Part shown: positions 2,902-60,104 of the stretch, piece by piece
Numbering within the stretch: position 1 is the first letter of the stretch
How the letters are laid out: each line of letters begins with the position of its first letter
Sequence record: PQ642267
DNA: 64,000 bases
Reading direction: 5' to 3' (one strand)
Source: Shigella phage SH-2
Made by a program: the position numbers and the translations under genes
The notes under the pieces: model-generated
Database searches by the model: none
Seen by the model: only the letters and a program-made list of their open reading frames with translations
What the model was told of the DNA's origin: nothing

Positions 2902-3903
2902 TTACTTAATTAGCTGTAAAGCTTGTTCAAGACGATCCAGACGATTAACAGATTCTTCCCAAATCCTTTTAGCCTTCTCATATTCTTTCTGCGCTTTATT
3001 AGAAATTTCTAGAACTTCTTTATAAGCTTTTTCTAGTGCAATAACTTCTGGACGAATTTCTATCGGTTCAGGCGAATCGTCAAGACATTCCATTAGTTCT
3101 TCAAGGGTAGTTTCTTCTTTAGGAGTATTCACAATTTCATCACATTTTTGTTGGTAAATTTCTTTATCAGTCGGTGAATAAGCGCATTTCACTTCACGAA
3201 GGCTAATTATAATTTTATATCCTTCCCACCCACACATATTTTTGAAAGGATATGTATGAATACTTTTTACAGTTTCCATACAGCCCAAAACCGCCTCTAA
3301 TTGATAAGTTATAGTGCTAGCAATTGAGAAAAATTTATTAATATTCTTTTGGTTAGCGTTTGGTGTAAAAAATCCATAATTCACAAAAATAGCTACTTTA
3401 TTTTTATCAAGCTCATATTCTTTTACGATAATCATATCAGAAGCCAAAGGATGAATTTGACGATAATCGCCATAACATAATTTAGAAGCTGATTTTAGAA
3501 TTTGTCCTTTGAAAAGTCTGAAATTACTAATCCAACGACGAGTAAAAATATTCTCAGGGTCTTCTTTATTATTAAGATGATAAGAATTAACATCACCGAA
3601 CCAATTATATCCTACTACATCTTTAGTTCGTTTAATTTCTTTCCCAAATTTACCAAGAATATCTCTGTTGACTAAGTATGAAAGAAGACGAGACCCTTTA
3701 AAGGTTTTCTTAATGTCATCTTTATCTGTACGACTAGAAATTTCACGAACTTCGTGAATAAATCTGCTGGAAGAAACAATGCTTACATCAATATTATTGA
3801 GCCATTGATTGATAATAGAAAGAACACTATTCTGACTAGACATAGGTTTAACTTTATCATCAATAACACTGTTGAATGATTTGATATATTCGTTACGAGT
3901 CAT
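2902..3903 (-). CDS. paralog-family protein 2 (~333 aa, C-terminal coiled coil)
   Basis: Track start 3954 is upstream of the promoter; ATG at 3901-3903 has GAGGAG SD; begins MTRNEYIKSF. Confidence 0.55.
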   Translation of the reverse strand: MTRNEYIKSFNSVIDDKVKPMSSQNSVLSIINQWLNNIDVSIVSSSRFIHEVREISSRTDKDDIKKTFKGSRLLSYLVNRDILGKFGKEIKRTKDVVGYNWFGDVNSYHLNNKEDPENIFTRRWISNFRLFKGQILKSASKLCYGDYRQIHPLASDMIIVKEYELDKNKVAIFVNYGFFTPNANQKNINKFFSIASTITYQLEAVLGCMETVKSIHTYPFKNMCGWEGYKIIISLREVKCAYSPTDKEIYQQKCDEIVNTPKEETTLEELMECLDDSPEPIEIRPEVIALEKAYKEVLEISNKAQKEYEKAKRIWEESVNRLDRLEQALQLIK

Positions 3904-3932
3904 ATTAATCTCCTCAGTAGAAAGTAAGAACA

Positions 3933-3961
3933 TTATACCACATCCTTGTGGCAAAGTAAAC
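3933..3961 (-). promoter_or_regulatory. T4-type early promoter (GTTTAC -35, TATAAT -10)
   Basis: Minus strand reads GTTTAC...TATAAT, followed by SD and ATG at 3903. Confidence 0.5.
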
Positions 3962-4989
3962 TAGTTTAGTGCATTTAGTGCATTGTTCAGTTTAGAACGT
4001 TGCTTCGTAAGATTTTTGACTTTTTCTTGAGCTTTTTCTAGCATCTTTTCAGCTTCTAGCACTTCATTAGTTGCTTTAACGAGTTCATCATCTACTGCCT
4101 TGATAGACTTCTCAATCGCATCGGCATGCCATTTTTCAACAGGTTTAAGACTCGGATTTTCAACAGGAAGAAAATTCACTTTATTGAATTTCCATTCATC
4201 CTTATTACCTGAACTATACATCCAAAATTTAGGATCGTTTGATGGGTAATTGGATAAATTTAAATTTAAGTTATCTTGCACTTCCTGCTTTTTCTCTTGC
4301 GGGACTTCGTCCTTTCTCAAAAAATCGTATTTAAATGAAACGATCATATCAAGTTCATATGTTGTTGTGTCTAATTTAAATCGTTCGAAATGTTGTGAAA
4401 TCTTAGACTGAACAGCAGCAACAACATCCATATACTTAAATGCTTCTGTCAACTGCGATTTAAGGCATTCGCAAATTGAAAGAGAATTTTTTGTATTAGG
4501 TTTAAAGCTAATTCGTGCAGTTCTGTTATTTTCTTTTAATGGTCTTACTTCCATCTGAAGAGTATAACCATCAAATTTCAGATTCTTTAAGTTAATATCA
4601 GAACCTTTTAATCGACTCGCAGTTGATAAAATTTGCTTTAATTGTCTACGGAACAGAGCAATAAATCTCCATTCAATACGATAATGATTTGGATTGAAAA
4701 ATCCAGATGATAAATCGACCTTACTTTGACCAACGCCTTGAACAAATAGAGGATTTTTATAATCAATAGTTTTACAGAAATCGGTGAGCTGCTCACGAGC
4801 AGTCATTTGCGTAATATACCCTGCTTTACTAAAATTACGCACCCATTCACTGCTATTCGTATACTTAAAGTGATGAATAACACGATTAACTTTGTCAGGG
4901 TCTAAATTATTTTCACACAAAAATGTCATAACATCACGAGTATAGCTGGCATTACGAACCATATCTTCAATTTGAGAACGAGTTTTCAT
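3961..4989 (-). CDS. paralog-family protein 3 (342 aa, C-terminal coiled coil)
   Basis: ATG at 4987-4989 with AAGGAA SD; MKTRSQIEDM N-terminus; motif W..I..FRRQLKQIL..AS.LKG shared with neighbours. Confidence 0.55.
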   Translation of the reverse strand: MKTRSQIEDMVRNASYTRDVMTFLCENNLDPDKVNRVIHHFKYTNSSEWVRNFSKAGYITQMTAREQLTDFCKTIDYKNPLFVQGVGQSKVDLSSGFFNPNHYRIEWRFIALFRRQLKQILSTASRLKGSDINLKNLKFDGYTLQMEVRPLKENNRTARISFKPNTKNSLSICECLKSQLTEAFKYMDVVAAVQSKISQHFERFKLDTTTYELDMIVSFKYDFLRKDEVPQEKKQEVQDNLNLNLSNYPSNDPKFWMYSSGNKDEWKFNKVNFLPVENPSLKPVEKWHADAIEKSIKAVDDELVKATNEVLEAEKMLEKAQEKVKNLTKQRSKLNNALNALN

Positions 4990-18769: not shown

Positions 18770-19072
18770 TTATTTACCTTTAATTACTTTAGCTGCTTCG
18801 ATAGCCGCTTGCTGAAGGTCATCCATAGACATACCGAATTTAGAAGCAAAGTTATCAATTTTCTTTTCGACAGCATTCAAAGGCTTGGCCTGTTTACCTT
18901 CATTAGCACCAGGAAGAGCGAGAATACGCTCTTTGTCAATATAAAGGCTTACAAGTTTCTTACGGTCTTTATCGGACAAATCATGAAATGAATGGGCCTT
19001 TTTATTTATAGCGGCTTCTAATTTACCTGCACTCACTCGCGCTTCAGTAATAAATTCTTGATATGTTTTCAT
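18770..19072 (-). CDS. internal head protein, IPII-like (100 aa, capsid-targeting leader MKTYQEFITE)
   Basis: N-terminal leader with predicted gp21 cleavage site after ITE; 100 aa as T4 IPII. Confidence 0.65.
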   Translation of the reverse strand: MKTYQEFITEARVSAGKLEAAINKKAHSFHDLSDKDRKKLVSLYIDKERILALPGANEGKQAKPLNAVEKKIDNFASKFGMSMDDLQQAAIEAAKVIKGK

Positions 19073-19090
19073 GTGTGTATCCTTTAATTT

Positions 19091-19408
19091 TTATTCTTTA
19101 GGGAAGTTTTTAGAATATGCATCATAAAGCTTATTTCCAATACGGCGGAAAACTCTAGCCGCAAAACGATTTTCTGGGTTTTTAATCATGATTTGCATCA
19201 TATAAGTACCCGCGTCAGAAAGAGCTTCTTCATAGTACCCATTAATTTCTTTAAGAGTCCTACGTTTACCACCAGGACCATCAACAGTAATTTTCCATTT
19301 ACCTGTAGAAGTGCGGCTCGGTGGCTCAACTTGTTCAATCCAAATATAACCTCCTTCTACACGTTGTCCTTGGGCAGATTCTGCAATAAATTCTTTATAC
19401 GTTTTCAT
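19091..19408 (-). CDS. internal head protein candidate (105 aa, leader MKTYKEFIAE)
   Basis: Same leader class; body not recognised as T4 IPIII (194 aa in T4). Confidence 0.6.
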   Translation of the reverse strand: MKTYKEFIAESAQGQRVEGGYIWIEQVEPPSRTSTGKWKITVDGPGGKRRTLKEINGYYEEALSDAGTYMMQIMIKNPENRFAARVFRRIGNKLYDAYSKNFPKE

Positions 19409-21721: not shown

Positions 21722-22095
21722 CGTGATTCCTTAACAAATTTCATAATTTCATTAAATTCATACATATTTAGTTTAAGCTGGTGTTCCTTTTTAATCTTTT
21801 TACACTGAGCTTTCCATTCACGTACACGTTTACGATAATGCCTTCCTTGATACCAATATCCTACCCAATTTACAGGTACCAATAAAAATGGAACTACTAA
21901 TGGAAGAATTAATACTAACAAAAATATTACGCCAGATTCAATATCAGTCATAAAGTCTATAACCATTCCAACAATCAATAGAATTACAAATGATATAGCT
22001 GTCACAGGACCTATTAATACATCAGTAGGAATTAGCTGACGCTTTAGTTCATACTTCACAGGTTTACTTGGAAGGTATAGTGATGGCTTTGACAT
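21703..22095 (-). CDS. predicted membrane protein (~130 aa)
   Basis: Track start 22116 is TTG; ATG at 22093-22095; two TM-like segments. Confidence 0.45.
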   Translation of the reverse strand: MSKPSLYLPSKPVKYELKRQLIPTDVLIGPVTAISFVILLIVGMVIDFMTDIESGVIFLLVLILPLVVPFLLVPVNWVGYWYQGRHYRKRVREWKAQCKKIKKEHQLKLNMYEFNEIMKFVKESRCKSQN

Positions 22096-22669
22096 ATTCT
22101 CTACATTCCTTAACAAATTTTTCTAATAATAAATCGCTTTCAAAATTAGGATTTTCCACGAATTTATCAAAAAGATCATCAACGATAGTTAAGATATTCT
22201 TTTTACTAAGAATACGCTTATTTTCATATTTTGTTTCAGAGTCAACTATAAGAGTAAAGAAATATTTCTTTCCCTGAAATTTTACCGTAGTATCAATATA
22301 AAATAAATTTGACTTTTGTAAATTACGTTTAAACCATGCGTCACTTAAACTATAAACGCCAAGATAATCATAATCGTCATTTAAATAACAAACTGTCCAT
22401 TCAGGAGAAATGAAATCAGTAAATTCAACATCAAAATCACATGTCAATGAATGAATTGATTCAATACTTTTAATGAGTATTCCAGGACGTATTAAAGACT
22501 TTTTACCTTTATAAAATCCAGAAAGACTTTCATCAGTTTCATATGAAGAGCTCCAATAGTAATTACGTCCTTCTGCCATGCGTTTAAGAGCATTTAGTAA
22601 TTGGTCTGGAACATCAACTTGTCTTTGGAACTCTTCAAACATTGAATTGAAATCACTTTGCATTTTCAT
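22064..22669 (-). CDS. hypothetical protein (201 aa)
   Basis: ATG with AGGAA SD; no motif recognised. Confidence 0.45.
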   Translation of the reverse strand: MKMQSDFNSMFEEFQRQVDVPDQLLNALKRMAEGRNYYWSSSYETDESLSGFYKGKKSLIRPGILIKSIESIHSLTCDFDVEFTDFISPEWTVCYLNDDYDYLGVYSLSDAWFKRNLQKSNLFYIDTTVKFQGKKYFFTLIVDSETKYENKRILSKKNILTIVDDLFDKFVENPNFESDLLLEKFVKECREYVKAITIPSK

Positions 22670-22710: not shown

Positions 22711-23304
22711 TTATTTCAGAGAATTAATATATTCCTGGACATCGGCAGAGGTAGTTTCAACCCCGGAAATATTACCGTTAAAGGTTTCAACTCGAGCAAG
22801 GGTATCTTCAATATCAACCTTAGTCAGTGCTGCAATTTCAACTACATCATCGGCAGTACTAATTCCAAGGGCATTTGCCGCACGAGTTTCACGGATATAT
22901 TCCAATTTAACCGCAAGTTCTTGGCGAGCATCATCTAACTCAACTACTTTCTTGGCGATTTCAATTCGCATTTCAGCATAACCGTCAGCCTTAGTAGTCA
23001 ACTGCTCAGCTGTTCGACGATATAGTAAACCGAGTTTAGCATGCATTGTTACATCTTGACCTTCGGAAAGAAGTTTACGAATTTCACGCTCTTTTGATTC
23101 GGCTTGTCGATTCTTTTCGATAATAAGTTCACGAATACGTTTTTCTTCATTAATAGATTTAACAGAAGCAGTTTTTAGATCTTTAATTTTATCAAGCAGT
23201 TTTGCTGCTGCAGCAGTATACTGTTCTTCAACAGATAGATTTTTAGCCATAGCAGAACCAAGTTTAGTGCGAATAAACTCAACAATTTTCTTCAGTGTGT
23301 TCAT
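22711..23304 (-). CDS. coiled-coil protein, possible PspA/IM30-like
   Basis: 197 aa, largely alpha-helical/heptad; N-terminal pattern loosely resembles PspA. Low confidence. Confidence 0.4.
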
Positions 23305-24671: not shown

Positions 24672-24837
24672 AGTTTTGTGAAAAATTTTTTAAAAAGTTT
24701 TAGGGAATTCTAGGGATGGAAGGGGCAATTAAAGGATAGGATAATATATTATAAAGGGTAGAAACTAAATGATGCCTAGAGAGGTCCAGAAAGGCCTAGA
24801 TGTCAAAAGGCCCTATCATTTAGATAGGGATTTAAAA

Positions 24838-25401
24838 TTATTTATCTAGTTTAGTTATTATAGCTTCTGCGGCAGCTTTTAGCTTAGATGCGGTGTTAAT
24901 ACGATTTTTAATTTCAGTATACGCATCGCCAAGAACGTCAAGGCTATCAGAATAAACACTTACACTATTGCGTTCGCTATTTGAAATAGAACCTTTAGTT
25001 TTACGATCAAAATCGGTGTACACGTCTTGAAGATCACGGGCTGCCTTCTTTGCATCATCCAATGCATCAAGAGCTTTATTCAAAGCATTAACGTATTTTT
25101 TAGTGTCGAACATATTCTTAGAAATTTTAACAGGTGCGCGTTCAGGAGTAGCTAATGCAGATTTAGGAACCTGAGCGCCAGATGCCAATTTCTTAGAAAT
25201 TTTGAAAAACGCTTTATTGAATTTATTTTCTTGACTCATCGTAAAAGAACTATTATCGATGTTGTACATTTCAATAGCTTTAGCTTTCCACTTAAGAAAA
25301 TCGCCTCGGTCTTTTGGGTCCAAGTGGAAGAATACTTTAGTAAGATCTGCTTCAGATGGTAATTTTGCTGCTTCGGTTAAAAATTCGGCATAGGTTTTCA
25401 T
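24838..25401 (-). CDS. candidate capsid-targeted internal protein (187 aa, leader MKTYAEFLTE)
   Basis: N-terminus matches the leader of IPI/IPII (MK[TS]Y.[EQ]F...E); predicted gp21 site L-T-E/A. Confidence 0.55.
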   Translation of the reverse strand: MKTYAEFLTEAAKLPSEADLTKVFFHLDPKDRGDFLKWKAKAIEMYNIDNSSFTMSQENKFNKAFFKISKKLASGAQVPKSALATPERAPVKISKNMFDTKKYVNALNKALDALDDAKKAARDLQDVYTDFDRKTKGSISNSERNSVSVYSDSLDVLGDAYTEIKNRINTASKLKAAAEAIITKLDK

Positions 25402-25491
25402 TTAAAATCCTTGAAATAATTTATCGGTTGGTTATTAATTATTTATTACTTTGTTATTATCCGTAACAGCATTCTCTATGTGATTCAAACT

Positions 25492-25516
25492 AAAAACCCC
25501 AACCTTTCGGTCGGGG
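25492..25516 (-). terminator. rho-independent terminator
   Basis: CCCCGACC-GAAA-GGTTGGGG hairpin plus T-run on minus strand. Confidence 0.6.
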
Positions 25517-25525
25517 CTAAGAATG

Positions 25526-25999
25526 TTATTTGATTTGTTTAGCAGACCAAATGCGGTCTTTGATGATTTTTTGGATGTCTTCAACATACTCTAGGTCATG
25601 AGCATGTGGGTTATCTTTGAAACTATAAGCACGAGCTAGTTTTTGGCCTTCAGTTTTGATTACTAAAAGCTCTTTAAGGATAGCTTCATATTTAGCGATA
25701 ATTCCTTTAACAATATTTTTTTCTTGTGCAGCTTTAGGATCTGCTTTAGGAGCAGGTTTACCCGAAGCCTTTGCAAAAGCAGCACCAGTAGCAACTAAAC
25801 TTTTCCAGGCCATACTAACCGCATTTCCTGTAAATCCTTCTGCTTTCATGTCGCGAGCAAACTGGAATCGTGATTCGTCAGAAGCATCTTTATAGGAATA
25901 TTTACCCGCTGCAATGGCTGCTTTTGCGACAGCTTGAATTTCGGTGCTAGATGCTTCATTTAACACCGCTTCATTTAAAAATTGAGCATATGATTTCAT
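25526..25999 (-). CDS. candidate capsid-targeted internal protein (157 aa, leader MKSYAQFLNE)
   Basis: Same leader class with L-N-E/A site; flanked by terminators; late promoter upstream. Confidence 0.55.
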   Translation of the reverse strand: MKSYAQFLNEAVLNEASSTEIQAVAKAAIAAGKYSYKDASDESRFQFARDMKAEGFTGNAVSMAWKSLVATGAAFAKASGKPAPKADPKAAQEKNIVKGIIAKYEAILKELLVIKTEGQKLARAYSFKDNPHAHDLEYVEDIQKIIKDRIWSAKQIK

Positions 26000-26038
26000 C
26001 TTATTTCCTGTTTTAATTCGTGATTTAATATACTACTA

Positions 26039-26046
26039 TATTTATA
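26039..26046 (-). promoter_or_regulatory. late promoter (TATAAATA on minus strand)
   Basis: Plus-strand TATTTATA at 26039-26046, ~40 nt upstream of ATG at 25999. Confidence 0.5.
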
Positions 26047-26048
26047 CT

Positions 26049-26075
26049 AAAAAGCCCCAACCTTTCGGTCGGGGC
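26049..26075 (-). terminator. rho-independent terminator (same hairpin as 25492-25516)
   Basis: GCCCCGACC-GAAA-GGTTGGGGC plus T-run on minus strand. Confidence 0.6.
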
Positions 26076-26128
26076 TAAGCCTTGCGGCAACCTTGTCGGG
26101 GTTCCACCTGCTAAGGCAAGTGTTTGTA

Positions 26129-26387: not shown

Positions 26388-26738
26388 TTAATATTCTTTT
26401 AAAGCATCAATCTGTTCACGACGTTTACGCCATAAATCAATTGCTTCATACGCAGATTCAGCATTTCGAATTGGACGGCATTTATATAAAGATTTGTGAT
26501 TTTGATATTGTGTAGATAACGGAATTTTATCTAAAAGGTCTTTACGTTCAAAGTATTCGTAACCATCTAAGCCAAATGAACGATTTTTGAGAAATTGCCA
26601 ATGACCGTATTCGTTTTCGACATAAACATAATCCGCGTGTTGATAAAGCAAATTAATTACACGTTCAGAAATAACAGTGTCATTGTGATTAAAATAAAAT
26701 GTTAAATCATGAACTACTAAATAAACATTACCTTTCAT
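26388..26738 (-). CDS. hypothetical protein (116 aa)
   Basis: ORF track; lies between tRNA-Arg and the tRNA-like region. Confidence 0.4.
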   Translation of the reverse strand: MKGNVYLVVHDLTFYFNHNDTVISERVINLLYQHADYVYVENEYGHWQFLKNRSFGLDGYEYFERKDLLDKIPLSTQYQNHKSLYKCRPIRNAESAYEAIDLWRKRREQIDALKEY

Positions 26739-26754: not shown

Positions 26755-26830
26755 TGGTCGAGGCAGTAGGGATCGAACCTACGACCTAGGACTTAGAAGG
26801 TCCTTGCTCTTCCTTCTGAGCTATGCCCCG
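26755..26830 (-). tRNA. tRNA-Arg (anticodon TCT), CCA encoded
   Basis: Manual fold: acceptor CGGGGCA/TGCCTCG, D-arm GCTC/GAGC, anticodon loop CTTCTAA, T-arm GTAGG-TTCGATC-CCTAC, 76 nt. Confidence 0.8.
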
Positions 26831-26833
26831 TAA

Positions 26834-27499
26834 TTAAAATTTCATTTTTCGACCTTTAAACCATCCTTCTGGAATTGGGTCAGTTTTCTTAATACGTTTA
26901 GAAACTTTTTCATCTAATGAATGAATCCACATCATACCAAATTGGGAATTCTTTTCTCCTTTCTGATGATTATTTTTAGCGTGAATTTCTTTCATTTTAT
27001 TAATAGTTTCAGGAGTATGATGCTTATTTAAAAATCTGCTATTATTTAAAAATTTTTCCTTGTATTCAGGAGTTGACCACAAACGTTTAAATACATTTGA
27101 ACCAATTTTACGATATTTTTCTTGAAGTAAAATATCATTTTCAAAACGTGATTTAAACGATTTAGCTCCTTTTAAACTAGCATCTTTCTTCTGGTTTAGC
27201 ATCCCAGGAATATTTATATGGTCCCATCCACCTTCACCACCAAGTTTTAAATTATACACATCTGGTCTATTTAAAAACTCTTCTGTGACAATATTTTTCT
27301 CAGCTTCAAGCATAGATTCTTTATCATCAAAATACTCTAATATTTCTTTAGAAAAATTTTCTATACCATACTTGTCTTGGGCTCTTTTTAATAATTTACC
27401 AGAACCCATATATCCATCATCTAAATTTTCGGTAGAATGCACACCAATATAAATTTTATTATTAATTTTATTTGTTATTTTATAAAGATAAAAATGCAT
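26834..27499 (-). CDS. segB: GIY-YIG homing endonuclease (SegB-like)
   Basis: YLYKI...IYIGVHST...YMGSG motif; ATG at 27497-27499 gives 221 aa; alternative ATG at 27541. Confidence 0.7.
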   Translation of the reverse strand: MHFYLYKITNKINNKIYIGVHSTENLDDGYMGSGKLLKRAQDKYGIENFSKEILEYFDDKESMLEAEKNIVTEEFLNRPDVYNLKLGGEGGWDHINIPGMLNQKKDASLKGAKSFKSRFENDILLQEKYRKIGSNVFKRLWSTPEYKEKFLNNSRFLNKHHTPETINKMKEIHAKNNHQKGEKNSQFGMMWIHSLDEKVSKRIKKTDPIPEGWFKGRKMKF

Positions 27500-27545
27500 A
27501 TCAGTCCCTAATAAAGAACTGAGCGTCTCACGACGAGTCATAAAT

Positions 27546-27619
<74 letters not shown>

Positions 27620-27624
27620 AAATT

Positions 27625-27711
27625 TGGTGCGAGAAGTGGGACTCGAACCCACAAGGAAATCATTCCGCAGCATTTTAAGTGCTGTGCCTTTACCAATTTG
27701 ACCATTCTCGC
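27625..27711 (-). tRNA. tRNA-Leu (anticodon TAA), class II long variable arm, CCA encoded
   Basis: Acceptor GCGAGAA/TTCTCGC, anticodon loop CTTAAAA, T-arm GTGGG-TTCGAGT-CCCAC, 87 nt. Confidence 0.8.
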
Positions 27712-27717
27712 TCTATA

Positions 27718-28350
27718 TTATTTATTACGTGAAAAAGATTGTTCTATCAATTCTGGACACTTTCGTTCTATCCATTTTCTAGCTTTTTGTGGGCTTATAC
27801 CTATTATTTTAGCAGCTTTACTAACCCATCCAAATTTAGAATAATCGATTTTAACTAATTCTTCGTAAATTTCATCAGTTAAAATGTTTTCATTAATATT
27901 TACCAGTAAATGATATAATTTATTATCATTAGCAATTTTAATGAATCTTTTATAGTTTCCGCCTTTACTTAAACCTAATGAAGTAATTGCAGATGATATA
28001 GTAGCAGAATTTAATAATGCGTTTAAAATTTCTTCATCACTAACATTATAACGCTTTTTATTATTTTTAATATTTTTACCAGCAAAAGTATCAGTTTGCG
28101 AATGGCAATTTGGACATAATAATCTTAAATTTGATTTAAGATGATTTTTGTTATTTCCGTCAATATGGTCTAATTGCAGAACAATATGCTTATTTTGCCA
28201 TTTTGAAATTTTACAAATTGCACACTCATATGGAAAAATATTTTCTTTTATTATTTTATCTTTCAGCTTTCCTGTACTAAAATTTGGATGTTTTCCTTCA
28301 AAAATTTCAGCTAATTTAGTATCCATAATATAATTCCCAATTATTAACAA
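27718..28350 (-). CDS. HNH homing endonuclease (mob-like) with C-terminal helix-turn-helix
   Basis: CAICK...H-x-DHIDGNNKN...CPNCH (HNH zinc motif); abuts the 5' end of tRNA-Leu. Confidence 0.65.
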   Translation of the reverse strand: MLIIGNYIMDTKLAEIFEGKHPNFSTGKLKDKIIKENIFPYECAICKISKWQNKHIVLQLDHIDGNNKNHLKSNLRLLCPNCHSQTDTFAGKNIKNNKKRYNVSDEEILNALLNSATISSAITSLGLSKGGNYKRFIKIANDNKLYHLLVNINENILTDEIYEELVKIDYSKFGWVSKAAKIIGISPQKARKWIERKCPELIEQSFSRNK

Positions 28351-28436: not shown

Positions 28437-28730
28437 TTACCATTTATGATAATACATATTTACGATGCATTCAAGACCCAAAGGATTCTTGAAAATATCA
28501 TATTCAAGAGGACCTTTTTCTGTTTCAATAAAGAAATCAAAGTTAACTGTGTTAAATTTACGGTCTTCCTTTACTAATTTAACCTGAGAAGATGAACGGT
28601 CAATGTAAACCTTTTCAACTTCAAAATATGTTAAAATGCCATAATCATCAATCAAGGATTTAGCTGCTTCTTGATCATATTTATATCCATTTTCAATGGA
28701 TGATACTTTCGCGTAAAGAATCATTATCAA
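28437..28730 (-). CDS. hypothetical protein (97 aa)
   Basis: ORF track only. Confidence 0.4.
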   Translation of the reverse strand: MIMILYAKVSSIENGYKYDQEAAKSLIDDYGILTYFEVEKVYIDRSSSQVKLVKEDRKFNTVNFDFFIETEKGPLEYDIFKNPLGLECIVNMYYHKW

Positions 28731-29149
28731 CCTTCATCAACAATAGTATGAGTATGGGCATTTACGATTTGCCACCAATCAAAGCGATTAGAACCATACA
28801 TCGGTTTGTTTTCATTTTCTTTGATAATATCACGGAGTTCATCTTCGGTAGCGGCTTTCGCGATTAAATCAGCATATCCACCGCGAGGATAATAATTATC
28901 ACCTGCAAAAAGTAAAAAGTTTGGTTTAATATTATTGAACTCTTCAAGAGTAATAACTTTTCCTGATGGTAGTTGAACAATCTCTACATATTTATATCCT
29001 AATTTTTGAGCAGCATCTACTGCTTCAAGCAAAGTATCATGAGCCCATCCAATTTGACAACCTGGCTTTTCAGATGGATTAGCCTGATAATCCGCATACA
29101 CTTTATACATTCTATTCACCTTTAGAAATTTTATCCATAACGATAGCAA
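28727..29149 (-). CDS. hypothetical protein (140 aa; start uncertain)
   Basis: ORF track; likely starts at an internal Met. Confidence 0.4.
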   Translation of the reverse strand: MLSLWIKFLKVNRMYKVYADYQANPSEKPGCQIGWAHDTLLEAVDAAQKLGYKYVEIVQLPSGKVITLEEFNNIKPNFLLFAGDNYYPRGGYADLIAKAATEDELRDIIKENENKPMYGSNRFDWWQIVNAHTHTIVDEG

Positions 29150-29373: not shown

Positions 29374-29661
29374 TTACAAAAGATTTTTAGCAATAATCTT
29401 GAGATGTGCCACAGAAATGTGTTTAGCTTTAAACAACGCAGTTTCTTCAGCAGGAGAGATAATGATTGTAGCACCATCCTTTTTAGCAGACCACCCATCA
29501 CCTAGGTAAACAGTACCTTTGATTTCTTCGCCATCAACCAAACTAATCATTGGTTTACCTTCTCGTCCTTTATTTGCTTTAATAACTTCAGAAGTAAGAG
29601 TAGCTTCAGTAATAGTAGAAACCGGGGTAGTTTTTGTAGTAAACTCTTTGAAAGTTTTCAT
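29374..29661 (-). CDS. ipI: internal head protein I (IPI-like; leader MKTFKEF...ITE/A)
   Basis: 95 aa with capsid-targeting leader, located before 57B as in T4. Confidence 0.7.
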   Translation of the reverse strand: MKTFKEFTTKTTPVSTITEATLTSEVIKANKGREGKPMISLVDGEEIKGTVYLGDGWSAKKDGATIIISPAEETALFKAKHISVAHLKIIAKNLL

Positions 29662-58201: not shown

Positions 58202-58626
58202 TGCTTCTGATCCCTGAAACTCATGAATTAGTTCTCGAGAATGTCGAAGCACTTATTCCTGAAGCACAGGGTCGCTTTGACGAATTGTCTTCTGCTTTAA
58301 ATAAAGACGATATAAATACAATTGTCGAGAATATGCTTGATGATGAAACTGATTTAGCAATTGCATTAGCTTCTATTAATGAAGATATGCCGCTAAATGA
58401 ATTCATCGTTAAACATGTTTCTGCTCGTGGTGAAATTACACGTACTAAAGACCGCAAGACGCGTGAACGTAATGCATTTCAAACCACCGGGCTGTCTAAA
58501 GCAAAACGTAGACAAATTGCTCGCAAAGCTACCAAAACGAAGATTGCCAATCCAGCAGGTCAATCTCGTGCTCAGCGTAAGCGTAAAAAAGCTCTTAAAC
58601 GCCGTAAAGCATTAGGATTAAGCTAA
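58201..58626 (+). CDS. 68: prohead core protein gp68
   Basis: 141 aa, T4 length and order. Confidence 0.85.
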
Positions 58627-59264
58627 TGAATGAACCCCAATTACTAATTGAAACTTGGGGTCAACCTGGCGAAATTATTGATGGTGTGCCAATGCTTGAA
58701 TCCCACGATGGAAAAGACTTAGGTTTAAAACCTGGTTTATACATCGAAGGAATATTCATGCAAGCGGAAGTCGTCAATAGAAATAAACGTCTTTATCCAA
58801 AACGCATATTAGAAAAAGCGGTAAAAGACTATATCAATGAGCAAGTTTTAACTAAACAAGCTCTCGGAGAATTAAATCATCCTCCACGCGCTAATGTTGA
58901 CCCGATGCAAGCCGCTATCATTATAGAAGATATGTGGTGGAAAGGAAATGACGTATACGGACGAGCTCGTGTTATTGAAGGTGACCATGGTCCTGGAGAT
59001 AAATTAGCAGCTAATATTCGTGCCGGATGGATTCCAGGAGTTTCTTCTCGTGGATTAGGTTCATTGACTGACACAAATAAAGGTTATCGTATCGTAAACG
59101 AAGGATTCAAATTAACTGTAGGTGTTGATGCAGTATGGGGTCCAAGTGCTCCAGATGCATGGGTAACTCCTAAGGAAATTACCGAATCACAGACGGCGGA
59201 AGCCGATACAAGTGCCGATGACGCCTATATGGCTCTCGCAGAGGCCATGAAAAAAGCGTTATAA
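58626..59264 (+). CDS. 21: prohead core protease
   Basis: 212 aa, T4 length and order. Confidence 0.9.
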   Translation: MNEPQLLIETWGQPGEIIDGVPMLESHDGKDLGLKPGLYIEGIFMQAEVVNRNKRLYPKRILEKAVKDYINEQVLTKQALGELNHPPRANVDPMQAAIIIEDMWWKGNDVYGRARVIEGDHGPGDKLAANIRAGWIPGVSSRGLGSLTDTNKGYRIVNEGFKLTVGVDAVWGPSAPDAWVTPKEITESQTAEADTSADDAYMALAEAMKKAL

Positions 59265-59294: not shown

Positions 59295-60104
59295 ATGCTT
59301 AAAGAACAACTGATTGCTGAAGCGCAAAAAATTGATGCTTCCGTTGCTCTTGATAGTATTTTCGAATCAGTTAATATTTCTCCGGAAGCAAAAGAAACTT
59401 TCGGCACTGTATTCGAAGCTACCGTCAAGCAGCACGCCGTTAAATTAGCTGAATCTCATATCGCTAAAATTGCTGAAAAAGCAGAAGAAGAAGTAGAAAA
59501 AAATAAAGAAGAAGCCGAAGAAAAAGCTGAGAAGAAAATCGCTGAGCAAGCTTCTAAATTCATCGACCATCTTGCGAAAGAATGGCTCGCCGAAAATAAA
59601 TTAGCAGTTGATAAAGGCATCAAAGCCGAACTGTTTGAATCCATGCTTGGTGGATTAAAAGAGCTCTTTGTTGAACACAACGTTGTTGTTCCAGAAGAAT
59701 CAGTTGATGTTGTGGCTGAAATGGAAGAAGAGCTGCAAGAACATAAAGAAGAATCAGCTCGTCTGTTCGAAGAACTCAATAAGCGTGACGCATATATCAA
59801 TTATGTGCAGCGTGAAGTGGCATTGAGCGAAAGTACTAAAGATCTGACTGAGTCTCAAAAAGAAAAAGTCTCTGCTCTGGTCGAAGGTATGGATTATTCA
59901 GATGAATTCTCAAGTAAATTGAGTGCCATCGTAGAAATGGTGAAGAAGTCTAATAAAGATGAAAGCACTATTACTGAGGGTATAAATACTCCTGATACTG
60001 AAGCAGCCGGACTGAATTTCGTCACTGAAGCTGTAGAAGATAAAACTGCACCTGGTGCAGAAGATATTGTAAGTGTATATGCGAAAGTCGCATCTCGTTT
60101 CTAA
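59295..60104 (+). CDS. 22: prohead core scaffold protein
   Basis: 269 aa, highly charged E/K-rich helical protein. Confidence 0.9.
   Translation: MLKEQLIAEAQKIDASVALDSIFESVNISPEAKETFGTVFEATVKQHAVKLAESHIAKIAEKAEEEVEKNKEEAEEKAEKKIAEQASKFIDHLAKEWLAENKLAVDKGIKAELFESMLGGLKELFVEHNVVVPEESVDVVAEMEEELQEHKEESARLFEELNKRDAYINYVQREVALSESTKDLTESQKEKVSALVEGMDYSDEFSSKLSAIVEMVKKSNKDESTITEGINTPDTEAAGLNFVTEAVEDKTAPGAEDIVSVYAKVASRF

Follow-up and report, generated by a model that had tools for sequence, protein, structure and literature searches.

The internal proteins of T-even phages have been known as a class, together with their leader and the shuffling of their genes, since the 1990s. Here we analyse two adjacent open reading frames (ORFs), of 187 and 157 amino acids (aa), in 64,000 nucleotides of Shigella phage SH-2 (sequence record PQ642267; this whole stretch is referred to as the window), which lie between the homologues of the T4 genes e.8 and rnaC. 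We propose, with a probability of roughly 70%, that both encode internal, that is head-packaged, proteins of the T-even type, and that they are carried on independently mobile cassettes at a third locus for such genes.

T4 Ip1, Ip2 and Ip3 act as inhibitors of GmrSD type IV restriction enzymes, a different one in each case, and the study that described this refers to two Ip loci (Silas et al. 2025, PMC12373910). Bas37_0260, a leader-bearing protein encoded at the ipI locus, inhibits McrBC (HIDEN-SEQ preprint, 10.1101/2025.11.20.689424), and the bodies that Ip1-3 and Bas37_0260 carry behind their common leader are unrelated (PMC12373910; 10.1101/2025.11.20.689424). The two ORFs considered here resemble Bas37_0260 in that it, too, was a formerly 'hypothetical' leader-bearing protein of a Tequatrovirus other than T4, recognised by its N-terminal signal alone, and the Bas37 genome harbors copies of both of them that are 98% identical; unlike Bas37_0260, a 77-aa product of the classical ipI locus for which a target has been demonstrated, they are larger and occupy another site. 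Repoila et al. 1994, as relayed by Silas et al. 2025 and Comeau et al. 2014, reportedly found further T-even internal proteins at the IP locus next to ipI. As later authors describe them, those proteins share with ours a common leader on unrelated bodies and genes that are shuffled among related phages, but differ in their location at that IP locus. A last system for comparison is that of the PeSL cassettes of T4-like phages, which are promoter/stem-loop units with an early sigma-70-like promoter, TTTACW-N17-TAYWAT (Arbiol 2010; Comeau 2014, PMC4122927).

Set beside T4 IPI, IPII and IPIII, our two ORFs have the same key leader residues, an (L or I)xE/A site for the prohead protease gp21 (the slash marks the predicted cut) and small, basic products, and they are likewise accessory genes of the hyperplastic region from denV to gene 57, on the same strand and with late or late-like promoter motifs. 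Unlike the T4 proteins, they occupy a site, between e.8 and rnaC, that is empty in T4; the similarity ends with the leader, the predicted architecture consists of a helical domain joined by a linker to a helical hairpin, and transposon sequencing gives an essential score for one of the pair.

Results

Two ORFs with the leader of T-even internal proteins

The 187-aa ORF lies at 24838-25401 and the 157-aa ORF at 25526-25999, as the ORF list and an earlier note on this DNA agree; both are on the minus strand, which that note had left unstated. The 187-aa protein starts MKTYAEFLTE/AAK, with the leader MKTYAEFLTE/A in aa 1-10, and the 157-aa protein starts MKSYAQFLNE/AVLNE/AS, its leader comprising aa 1-10 and extending to aa 15 by way of a duplicated LNE/A site. 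In the leader of T4 IPIII, mutagenesis by Mullaney and Black identified residues 4 and 7 as those for targeting and residues 8 and 10 as those for processing (review PMC9026906). Y4, F7, L8 (Ile to Leu relative to T4) and E10 are kept in both ORFs and are followed by Ala; thus both of the targeting residues, Y4 and F7, are present in each, F7 being moreover invariant across the 157-aa family. The proposal that the two starts follow the leader and cleavage-site pattern of IPI and IPII is therefore borne out by these residues, T4 IPII and IPIII starting MKTYQEFIAE/A.

The putative gp21-type processing sites are LTE/A in the 187-aa ORF and LNE/A, twice, in the 157-aa ORF. Sites of the form [LI]xE are confined to the leaders, with the exception in the 157-aa protein of LKEL (residue 108), where no small residue follows. 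When the 506 Met-start candidates of the window were screened with a relaxed leader pattern, exactly five matched: the 187-aa and 157-aa ORFs, IPI, an IPII-like gene and, in the position of ipIII, an ORF of 105 aa. The occurrence of the leader in both ORFs is far beyond chance. Within the 157-aa leader (25955-25999, minus strand), a 15-bp tandem duplication, TTAAATGAAGCGGTG / TTAAATGAAGCATCT, doubles the LNE/A cleavage site; Mosigvirus-type homologues of this protein have a single cleavage site.

The isoelectric points of the mature forms are approximately 9.4-9.5 (157-aa) and 9.5 (187-aa), and those of the other internal proteins of the phage 9.0-9.7. In an AlphaFold model of the 157-aa protein (predicted local distance difference test score, pLDDT, 75), a small helical N-domain (~aa 18-75) is followed by a linker rich in Lys and Pro and by a long helical hairpin (aa 88-154). 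The model of the 187-aa protein is of low confidence (pLDDT 58) and resembles it in layout: a small N-domain of helices is connected through a disordered linker (aa 81-98) to a long helical hairpin. Fold searches with both models returned generic helical hairpins or self-hits only, and the structure prediction of the mature domains that the earlier note had put forward as a check yielded no functional lead.

Two protein families that share the leader only

Both families are common: of the phage records searched by tblastn, 511 hold a member of the 157-aa family and 164 one of the 187-aa family, protein identity being at least 96% in almost all of the latter. All 120 GenBank rows among the matches listed are hypothetical or unannotated, a labelling that probably stems from the site being empty in T4 and T6. 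An exhaustive search by profile, over 1.8 billion representative proteins, matched only 13 proteins, none of which has the source name or the Pfam domain of a known internal protein. Eight of the nine complete relatives begin M-x-x-[YF]-x-x-F-[LV]-x-E-[AG], the ninth having the motif 43 residues in, and the other four of the 13 are fragments or fusions. Homologues of the 157-aa protein keep the start M-x-x-[YF]-x-x-F-L-x-E-[AG] at identities of about 35-60%.

Comparison of the two families by hhalign aligned residues 1-10, the leader, and nothing more. Both proteins are assigned to phrog_2280 in PHROGs (function unknown), which raised the possibility that they are paralogues; this was ruled out, as the profile-profile comparison shows the leader alone to be in common. 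A resemblance between the C-terminal helix of the 187-aa protein and the alternative C-domain of the Klebsiella/Yersinia members of the 157-aa family was likewise not significant (hhalign probability 11%). Pfam returned only sub-threshold, coiled-coil-like noise for both proteins, with no family above threshold, and no homology of the mature domains to IPI (PF11634), IPII or IPIII was found by Pfam, hhalign or the profile search. That the 187-aa protein substitutes for IPIII was ruled out as well, since Shfl2, G3F7, ECML-134, PhAPEC2 and other genomes carry both.

Two cassettes in series, delimited by hairpins

In the direction of transcription, the insert comprises two cassettes in series: a late promoter, the 157-aa ORF and a hairpin (H2), and then a 93-nt spacer with a late-like motif, the 187-aa ORF and another hairpin (H3). 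The 157-aa cassette is bracketed by a 30-nt direct repeat on the minus strand, the upstream copy of which is hairpin H1 (26050-26079; predicted folding energy -20.3 kcal/mol), the terminator of rnaC, and the downstream copy H2 (25492-25521; -17.9 kcal/mol), the terminator of the 157-aa gene. The two are 97% identical over 30 nt and each is followed by a T-run; their folding z-scores are -4.3 (H1) and -4.9 (H2), and a 22-nt core is found at these two places and nowhere else in the 64 kb window, nor in any of 100 shuffles. Directly after the T-run of H1 comes a perfect T4-type late promoter motif, TATAAATA (26039-26046, minus strand), which precedes the ATG of the 157-aa gene by 39 nt. In 12 of 13 loci of the 157-aa family, that of a divergent Klebsiella phage among them, [T/A]ATAAATA stands 26-40 nt before the ATG, and the late promoter is retained in homologues with as little as about 40% identity.

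The 187-aa gene is preceded by AATAAATA (25440-25447, minus strand), a putative late-promoter-like motif that matches at 7 of 8 positions and lies 38 nt upstream of the ATG; the motif is kept, as [A/G]ATAAATA, in PhAPEC2 and CT01. Its terminator is H3 (24804-24829, minus strand), a stem-loop of CCCTATC-TAAAT-GATAGGG plus CCTTTTG (-11.2 kcal/mol, z -3.6) that is weaker than H1 and H2, is unrelated to them in sequence and corresponds to a terminator annotation in phage G50. The 5' ends of the two genes have a 42-nt stretch in common, at 76% identity. Near-identical hairpin terminators around the 157-aa gene, as well as its late promoter at 26039-26046, had been reported in the earlier note and were both recovered here; the broader assertion, that both ORFs possess a late promoter and terminators of their own, is correct for the 157-aa gene, and has to be reduced for the 187-aa gene to a 7/8 match and a different, weaker hairpin.

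This arrangement is similar to that of the PeSL cassettes in that a terminator stem-loop is fused to a promoter and is repeated on either side of a variable ORF in the hyperplastic region; in addition, presence and absence are polymorphic, and the empty, single and double occupancy described below fits repeat-mediated excision and insertion. It differs from them in its late-type promoter, TATAAATA, and in H3, the sequence of which is unrelated. A search for an early sigma-70-like promoter beside the stem-loops found none after H1, where the late motif stands instead, and only weak 9/12 sigma-70 matches after H2. As their promoter is of the late type, the cassettes therefore lie outside the PeSL definition.

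Occupancy of the e.8-rnaC site and exchange of the cassettes

Relative to T4, the two cassettes form an insertion of 1,230 bp (24814-26043, minus strand), as delimited by blastn of the T4 rnaC-e.8 gap against the window. The empty site of T4 contains a single copy of the hairpin, H1 being joined directly to the sequence that comes after H3 and leads to e.8. All four states of occupancy were observed among sequenced phages: empty in T4, T6 and ACG-C40; the 157-aa gene only in RB27, RB68 and fD1; the 187-aa gene only in RB14, HY03 and CT01; and both genes in the window, Bas37, fPS-65 and HP3.2. Taking away from the RB27 state all that lies between the two copies of the hairpin gives the T4 state, which is the exact product expected of recombination between direct repeats. 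The 157-aa family is present at the same site in three genera, Tequatrovirus, Mosigvirus (PhAPEC2) and Jiaodavirus (Klebsiella phage KP1), and the empty site of T4 is therefore the exception.

The 187-aa gene of this Tequatrovirus (window 24838-25401) is 96% identical in DNA to that of Mosigvirus PhAPEC2 (positions 3589-4152 of locus L003), compared with 74-84% for the flanking genes and the 157-aa gene, which indicates a recent, horizontal, inter-genus exchange of the 187-aa cassette singly. A different kind of rearrangement is represented by a 94-aa protein from a Logan contig (P0014), in which the N-terminal part of trna.3 is fused to the last ~32 residues of the 157-aa protein (compared with window 28727-29149 and 25526-25620); this fusion implies that some natural phage underwent a deletion of ~3 kb, taking the tRNA region and most of the 157-aa gene.

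Virion proteomics and transposon sequencing of homologues

Experimental data were available for homologues of both proteins. In the proteome of purified virions of phage fD1 (PMC8309999), g140 was found to be particle-associated with LC-MS/MS at a strict threshold. This protein is 97.5% identical to the 157-aa ORF, and gives slight experimental support to the packaging of the latter.

Phage Bas37 (MZ501089) carries both cassettes, bas37_0243 being 98% identical to the 187-aa protein and bas37_0244 98% identical to the 157-aa protein; the genes were matched to the published HIDEN-SEQ tables by their TA-site counts (48 and 34, respectively), which agree. In the reference library bas37_0244 is non-essential, with insertions at 29 of 34 sites (HIDEN-SEQ preprint, 10.1101/2025.11.20.689424), and its tolerance of insertions fits an accessory internal protein. 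In the same work bas37_0243 was called essential on K-12, with an insertion at one of 48 TA sites between saturated neighbours (23/23 and 29/34), and its saturation of 0.02 is typical for true essential genes in that table (10.1101/2025.11.20.689424). Polarity as the cause of this call was ruled out, given that the genes up to lysozyme e (bas37_0235-0242) tolerate insertions; in contrast, T4 5.1/segC/5.3/5.4 and wac sit within essential late operons. False 'essential' calls are known from the method, and those that it makes in T4 for hoc, inh, segE, uvsW, segC and wac are conceded to be unexplained (HIDEN-SEQ preprint). Its authors make no comment on the score of bas37_0243.

Genomic setting and neighbouring genes

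The window is that of a Tequatrovirus; over this region it agrees with Shigella phage SH-1 at 100% identity, and with hundreds of Tequatrovirus genomes at 95-99%. The gene order is that of T4 in GenBank orientation, with all genes of the block on the minus strand, and reads, with rising window coordinates (against transcription), denV, the ipII locus, e, nudE, the e.2-e.8 genes, rnaC/rnaD, the tRNAs, ipI and genes 57B/57A. The head-assembly genes in the window are those for gp67, gp21, gp22 and gp23; the prohead protease gp21 is encoded at 58626-59264 (plus strand; Peptidase_S77, 1.5e-111) and the gp22 scaffold at 59295-60104 (plus strand; T4_CASP, 3.3e-90). IPI, at its reference locus, lies at 29374-29661 (minus strand; PF11634, 1.1e-52), and the ipII/ipIII locus at 18770-19408 (minus strand), consisting of the IPII-like gene (18770-19072) and the leader-bearing 105-aa ORF (19091-19408) at the ipIII position. 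The two ORFs had been placed far from the ip loci, which is true only in a relative sense, as the ipII locus (18.8-19.4 kb) lies on one side of them and ipI (29.4-29.7 kb) on the other. The 105-aa ORF (minus strand), with a perfect leader, MKTYKEFIAE/S, stands in the place of ipIII without a Pfam match or similarity to IPIII, and it appears to be a further unnamed internal-protein candidate.

An Rfam scan of 24-28.5 kb found tRNAs alone. The tRNA cluster (26755-28350) is down to tRNA-Arg and tRNA-Leu, plus one tRNA-like element at 27549-27619 below threshold (27.8 bits; cut-off 29); relatives such as G50 have 11 tRNAs. Within it are two homing-endonuclease-like ORFs, GIY-YIG/SegB-like at 26834-27541 and HNH-like at 27718-28350, assigned by position and sequence motifs only. 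Between rnaD and tRNA-Arg lies a 116-aa ORF (26388-26738, minus strand) that has no counterpart in T4; it corresponds by position and length to bas37_0245, which is dispensable in Bas37, and aligns at 74% DNA identity with PhAPEC2_135 (annotated as similar to RB69ORF150c). This ORF has the look of a further insertion within the same hyperplastic stretch. The homologues of e.5 and e.6 lie at 22064-22669 and 22711-23304. Their Bas37 counterparts, taken by position and length to be bas37_0239 and bas37_0240, were strongly depleted in one clinical-isolate comparison of the HIDEN-SEQ tables (log2 fold change -3.6 and -6.5, q = 0), and a deletion of bas37_0240 was built by the authors of that study. 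This depletion suggests a conditional anti-defence role for the 'hypothetical' e.5/e.6 genes.

Discussion

The reading best supported by these data is that the two ORFs add to the known class of internal proteins, and that they lie at a third internal-protein locus. On this reading, each gene would be transcribed alone from a short cassette made up of a terminator hairpin, a late or late-like promoter, a ribosome-binding site, the ORF and a terminator. The 10-residue N-terminal capsid-targeting sequence would bind the gp22 scaffolding core of the assembling prohead, and gp21 would then cut after Leu-x-Glu, that is after E10 in the 187-aa protein and after E10 and/or E15 in the 157-aa protein. 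The basic mature proteins, of about 19.7 kDa (187-aa) and 15.5-16 kDa (157-aa), would stay in the head, leave with the DNA at the next infection and most likely neutralise a first-line host defence, for instance a type IV restriction enzyme. We infer the targeting, cleavage and injection of both proteins from what is known of other internal proteins, and an anti-defence role by analogy with Ip1-3 and Bas37_0260 alone. The cassettes themselves would be gained and lost independently through recombination at or beside the terminator hairpins, and the e.8-rnaC site would be a third internal-protein locus, polymorphic for presence and absence, that happens to be empty in T4 and T6.

The earlier note had envisaged an expanded set of leader proteins destined for the head, and this idea is upheld by the leader residues, by the presence of gp21, gp22 and IPI in the same genome, by conservation and by the fD1 homologue; the promoter of the 187-aa gene is imperfect, however, and the essential score of its homologue is not what one would expect of a simple accessory effector. 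Several results, then, weigh against packaged, accessory proteins at this locus. The 187-aa gene is without a perfect TATAAATA motif. The fD1 preparation was impure, with 113 of 277 phage proteins scored, rIIA and an e.6 homologue included, and with 672 host proteins co-purified (PMC8309999), so that the presence of g140 is weak proof of packaging. The predicted structures match generic helical hairpins only and therefore provide no functional lead. Finally, bas37_0243 scores as essential on K-12 while T4 ipI, ipII and ipIII are fully dispensable in the same assay, and bas37_0244 shows no significant depletion in one clinical-isolate comparison.

The transposon result is the basis of an explanation that we regard as possible, if doubtful: that the 187-aa protein is indispensable for the phages that carry it, either as an antidote (injected or early) to something in K-12 or in the phage, an idea that may be likened to dmd, which is needed against RnlAB, or as a component that head assembly comes to need. 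The near absence of insertions from bas37_0243, between saturated neighbours and with polarity ruled out, speaks for it, and the 96% DNA identity of the gene between genera, along with the protein identity of at least 96% in nearly all 164 records, suggests recent spread and strong constraint. The gene is, however, absent from T4, T6, RB27, fD1 and most relatives, which grow on K-12; the authors of the screen are silent on the result, and loss of the cassette from the working stock would leave the same single-gene gap in gene-level tables. If the protein is required, it may disarm a K-12 function that T4 evades otherwise, or be an obligatory partner of the carrier's head or infection machinery. 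We think it unlikely that it is the first internal protein that a T-even phage cannot lack on E. coli K-12, borne on a horizontally spreading cassette that is required once acquired. The essentiality signal of the 187-aa gene is either artefactual or, of all that the locus shows, the feature of greatest interest.

That the 187-aa gene scarcely tolerates insertions would also suit a structural role, in which the two proteins were auxiliary, morphogenetic proteins of the prohead core, scaffold-like or DNA-condensing, and so packaged without being anti-defence effectors. Both are basic and, in the models, almost wholly helical with long helical hairpins, and gp21 cuts scaffold and core proteins too; nevertheless, the patchy distribution and horizontal exchange of the cassettes, the lack of a match of either protein to the T4 scaffold family or gp67, the dispensability of the 157-aa gene (bas37_0244) and the fact that all four T-even internal proteins whose function is known inhibit restriction make this quite improbable. 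Least credible to us is that the leader-like N-termini are relics of recombination between cassettes, for which the 42-nt, 76% identical 5' stretch could be cited, since leaders could act as recombination points, as could the missing perfect late promoter of the 187-aa gene and the unspecific virion proteome of fD1. A relic would decay, yet the leader and its LxE site followed by Ala or Gly are kept where the mature regions have diverged to ~35-40% identity, the residues kept are those found to be critical by experiment, and the late promoter is conserved over three genera.

In the annotations and literature found, the two families are unnamed and the e.8-rnaC site is not named as an Ip locus, although a prior description in Repoila et al. 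1994 is possible; a literature search by gene names and accessions returned nothing on the two ORFs, and the supplements of Silas et al. contain no matching leader strings. As the T-even internal proteins of known function each block a different type IV enzyme, each of the two new families is a candidate inhibitor, and a probe for host defence as yet unrecognised. The unremarked 'essential' score of the 187-aa homologue in Bas37 is a directly testable lead. Recognition of the e.8-rnaC site as a third internal-protein locus, made up of swappable cassettes, would make for better annotation of therapeutic T4-like phages, would supply engineering with packaging tags of natural origin and with a site where insertions are tolerated, and would account for part of the host-range variation of these phages.

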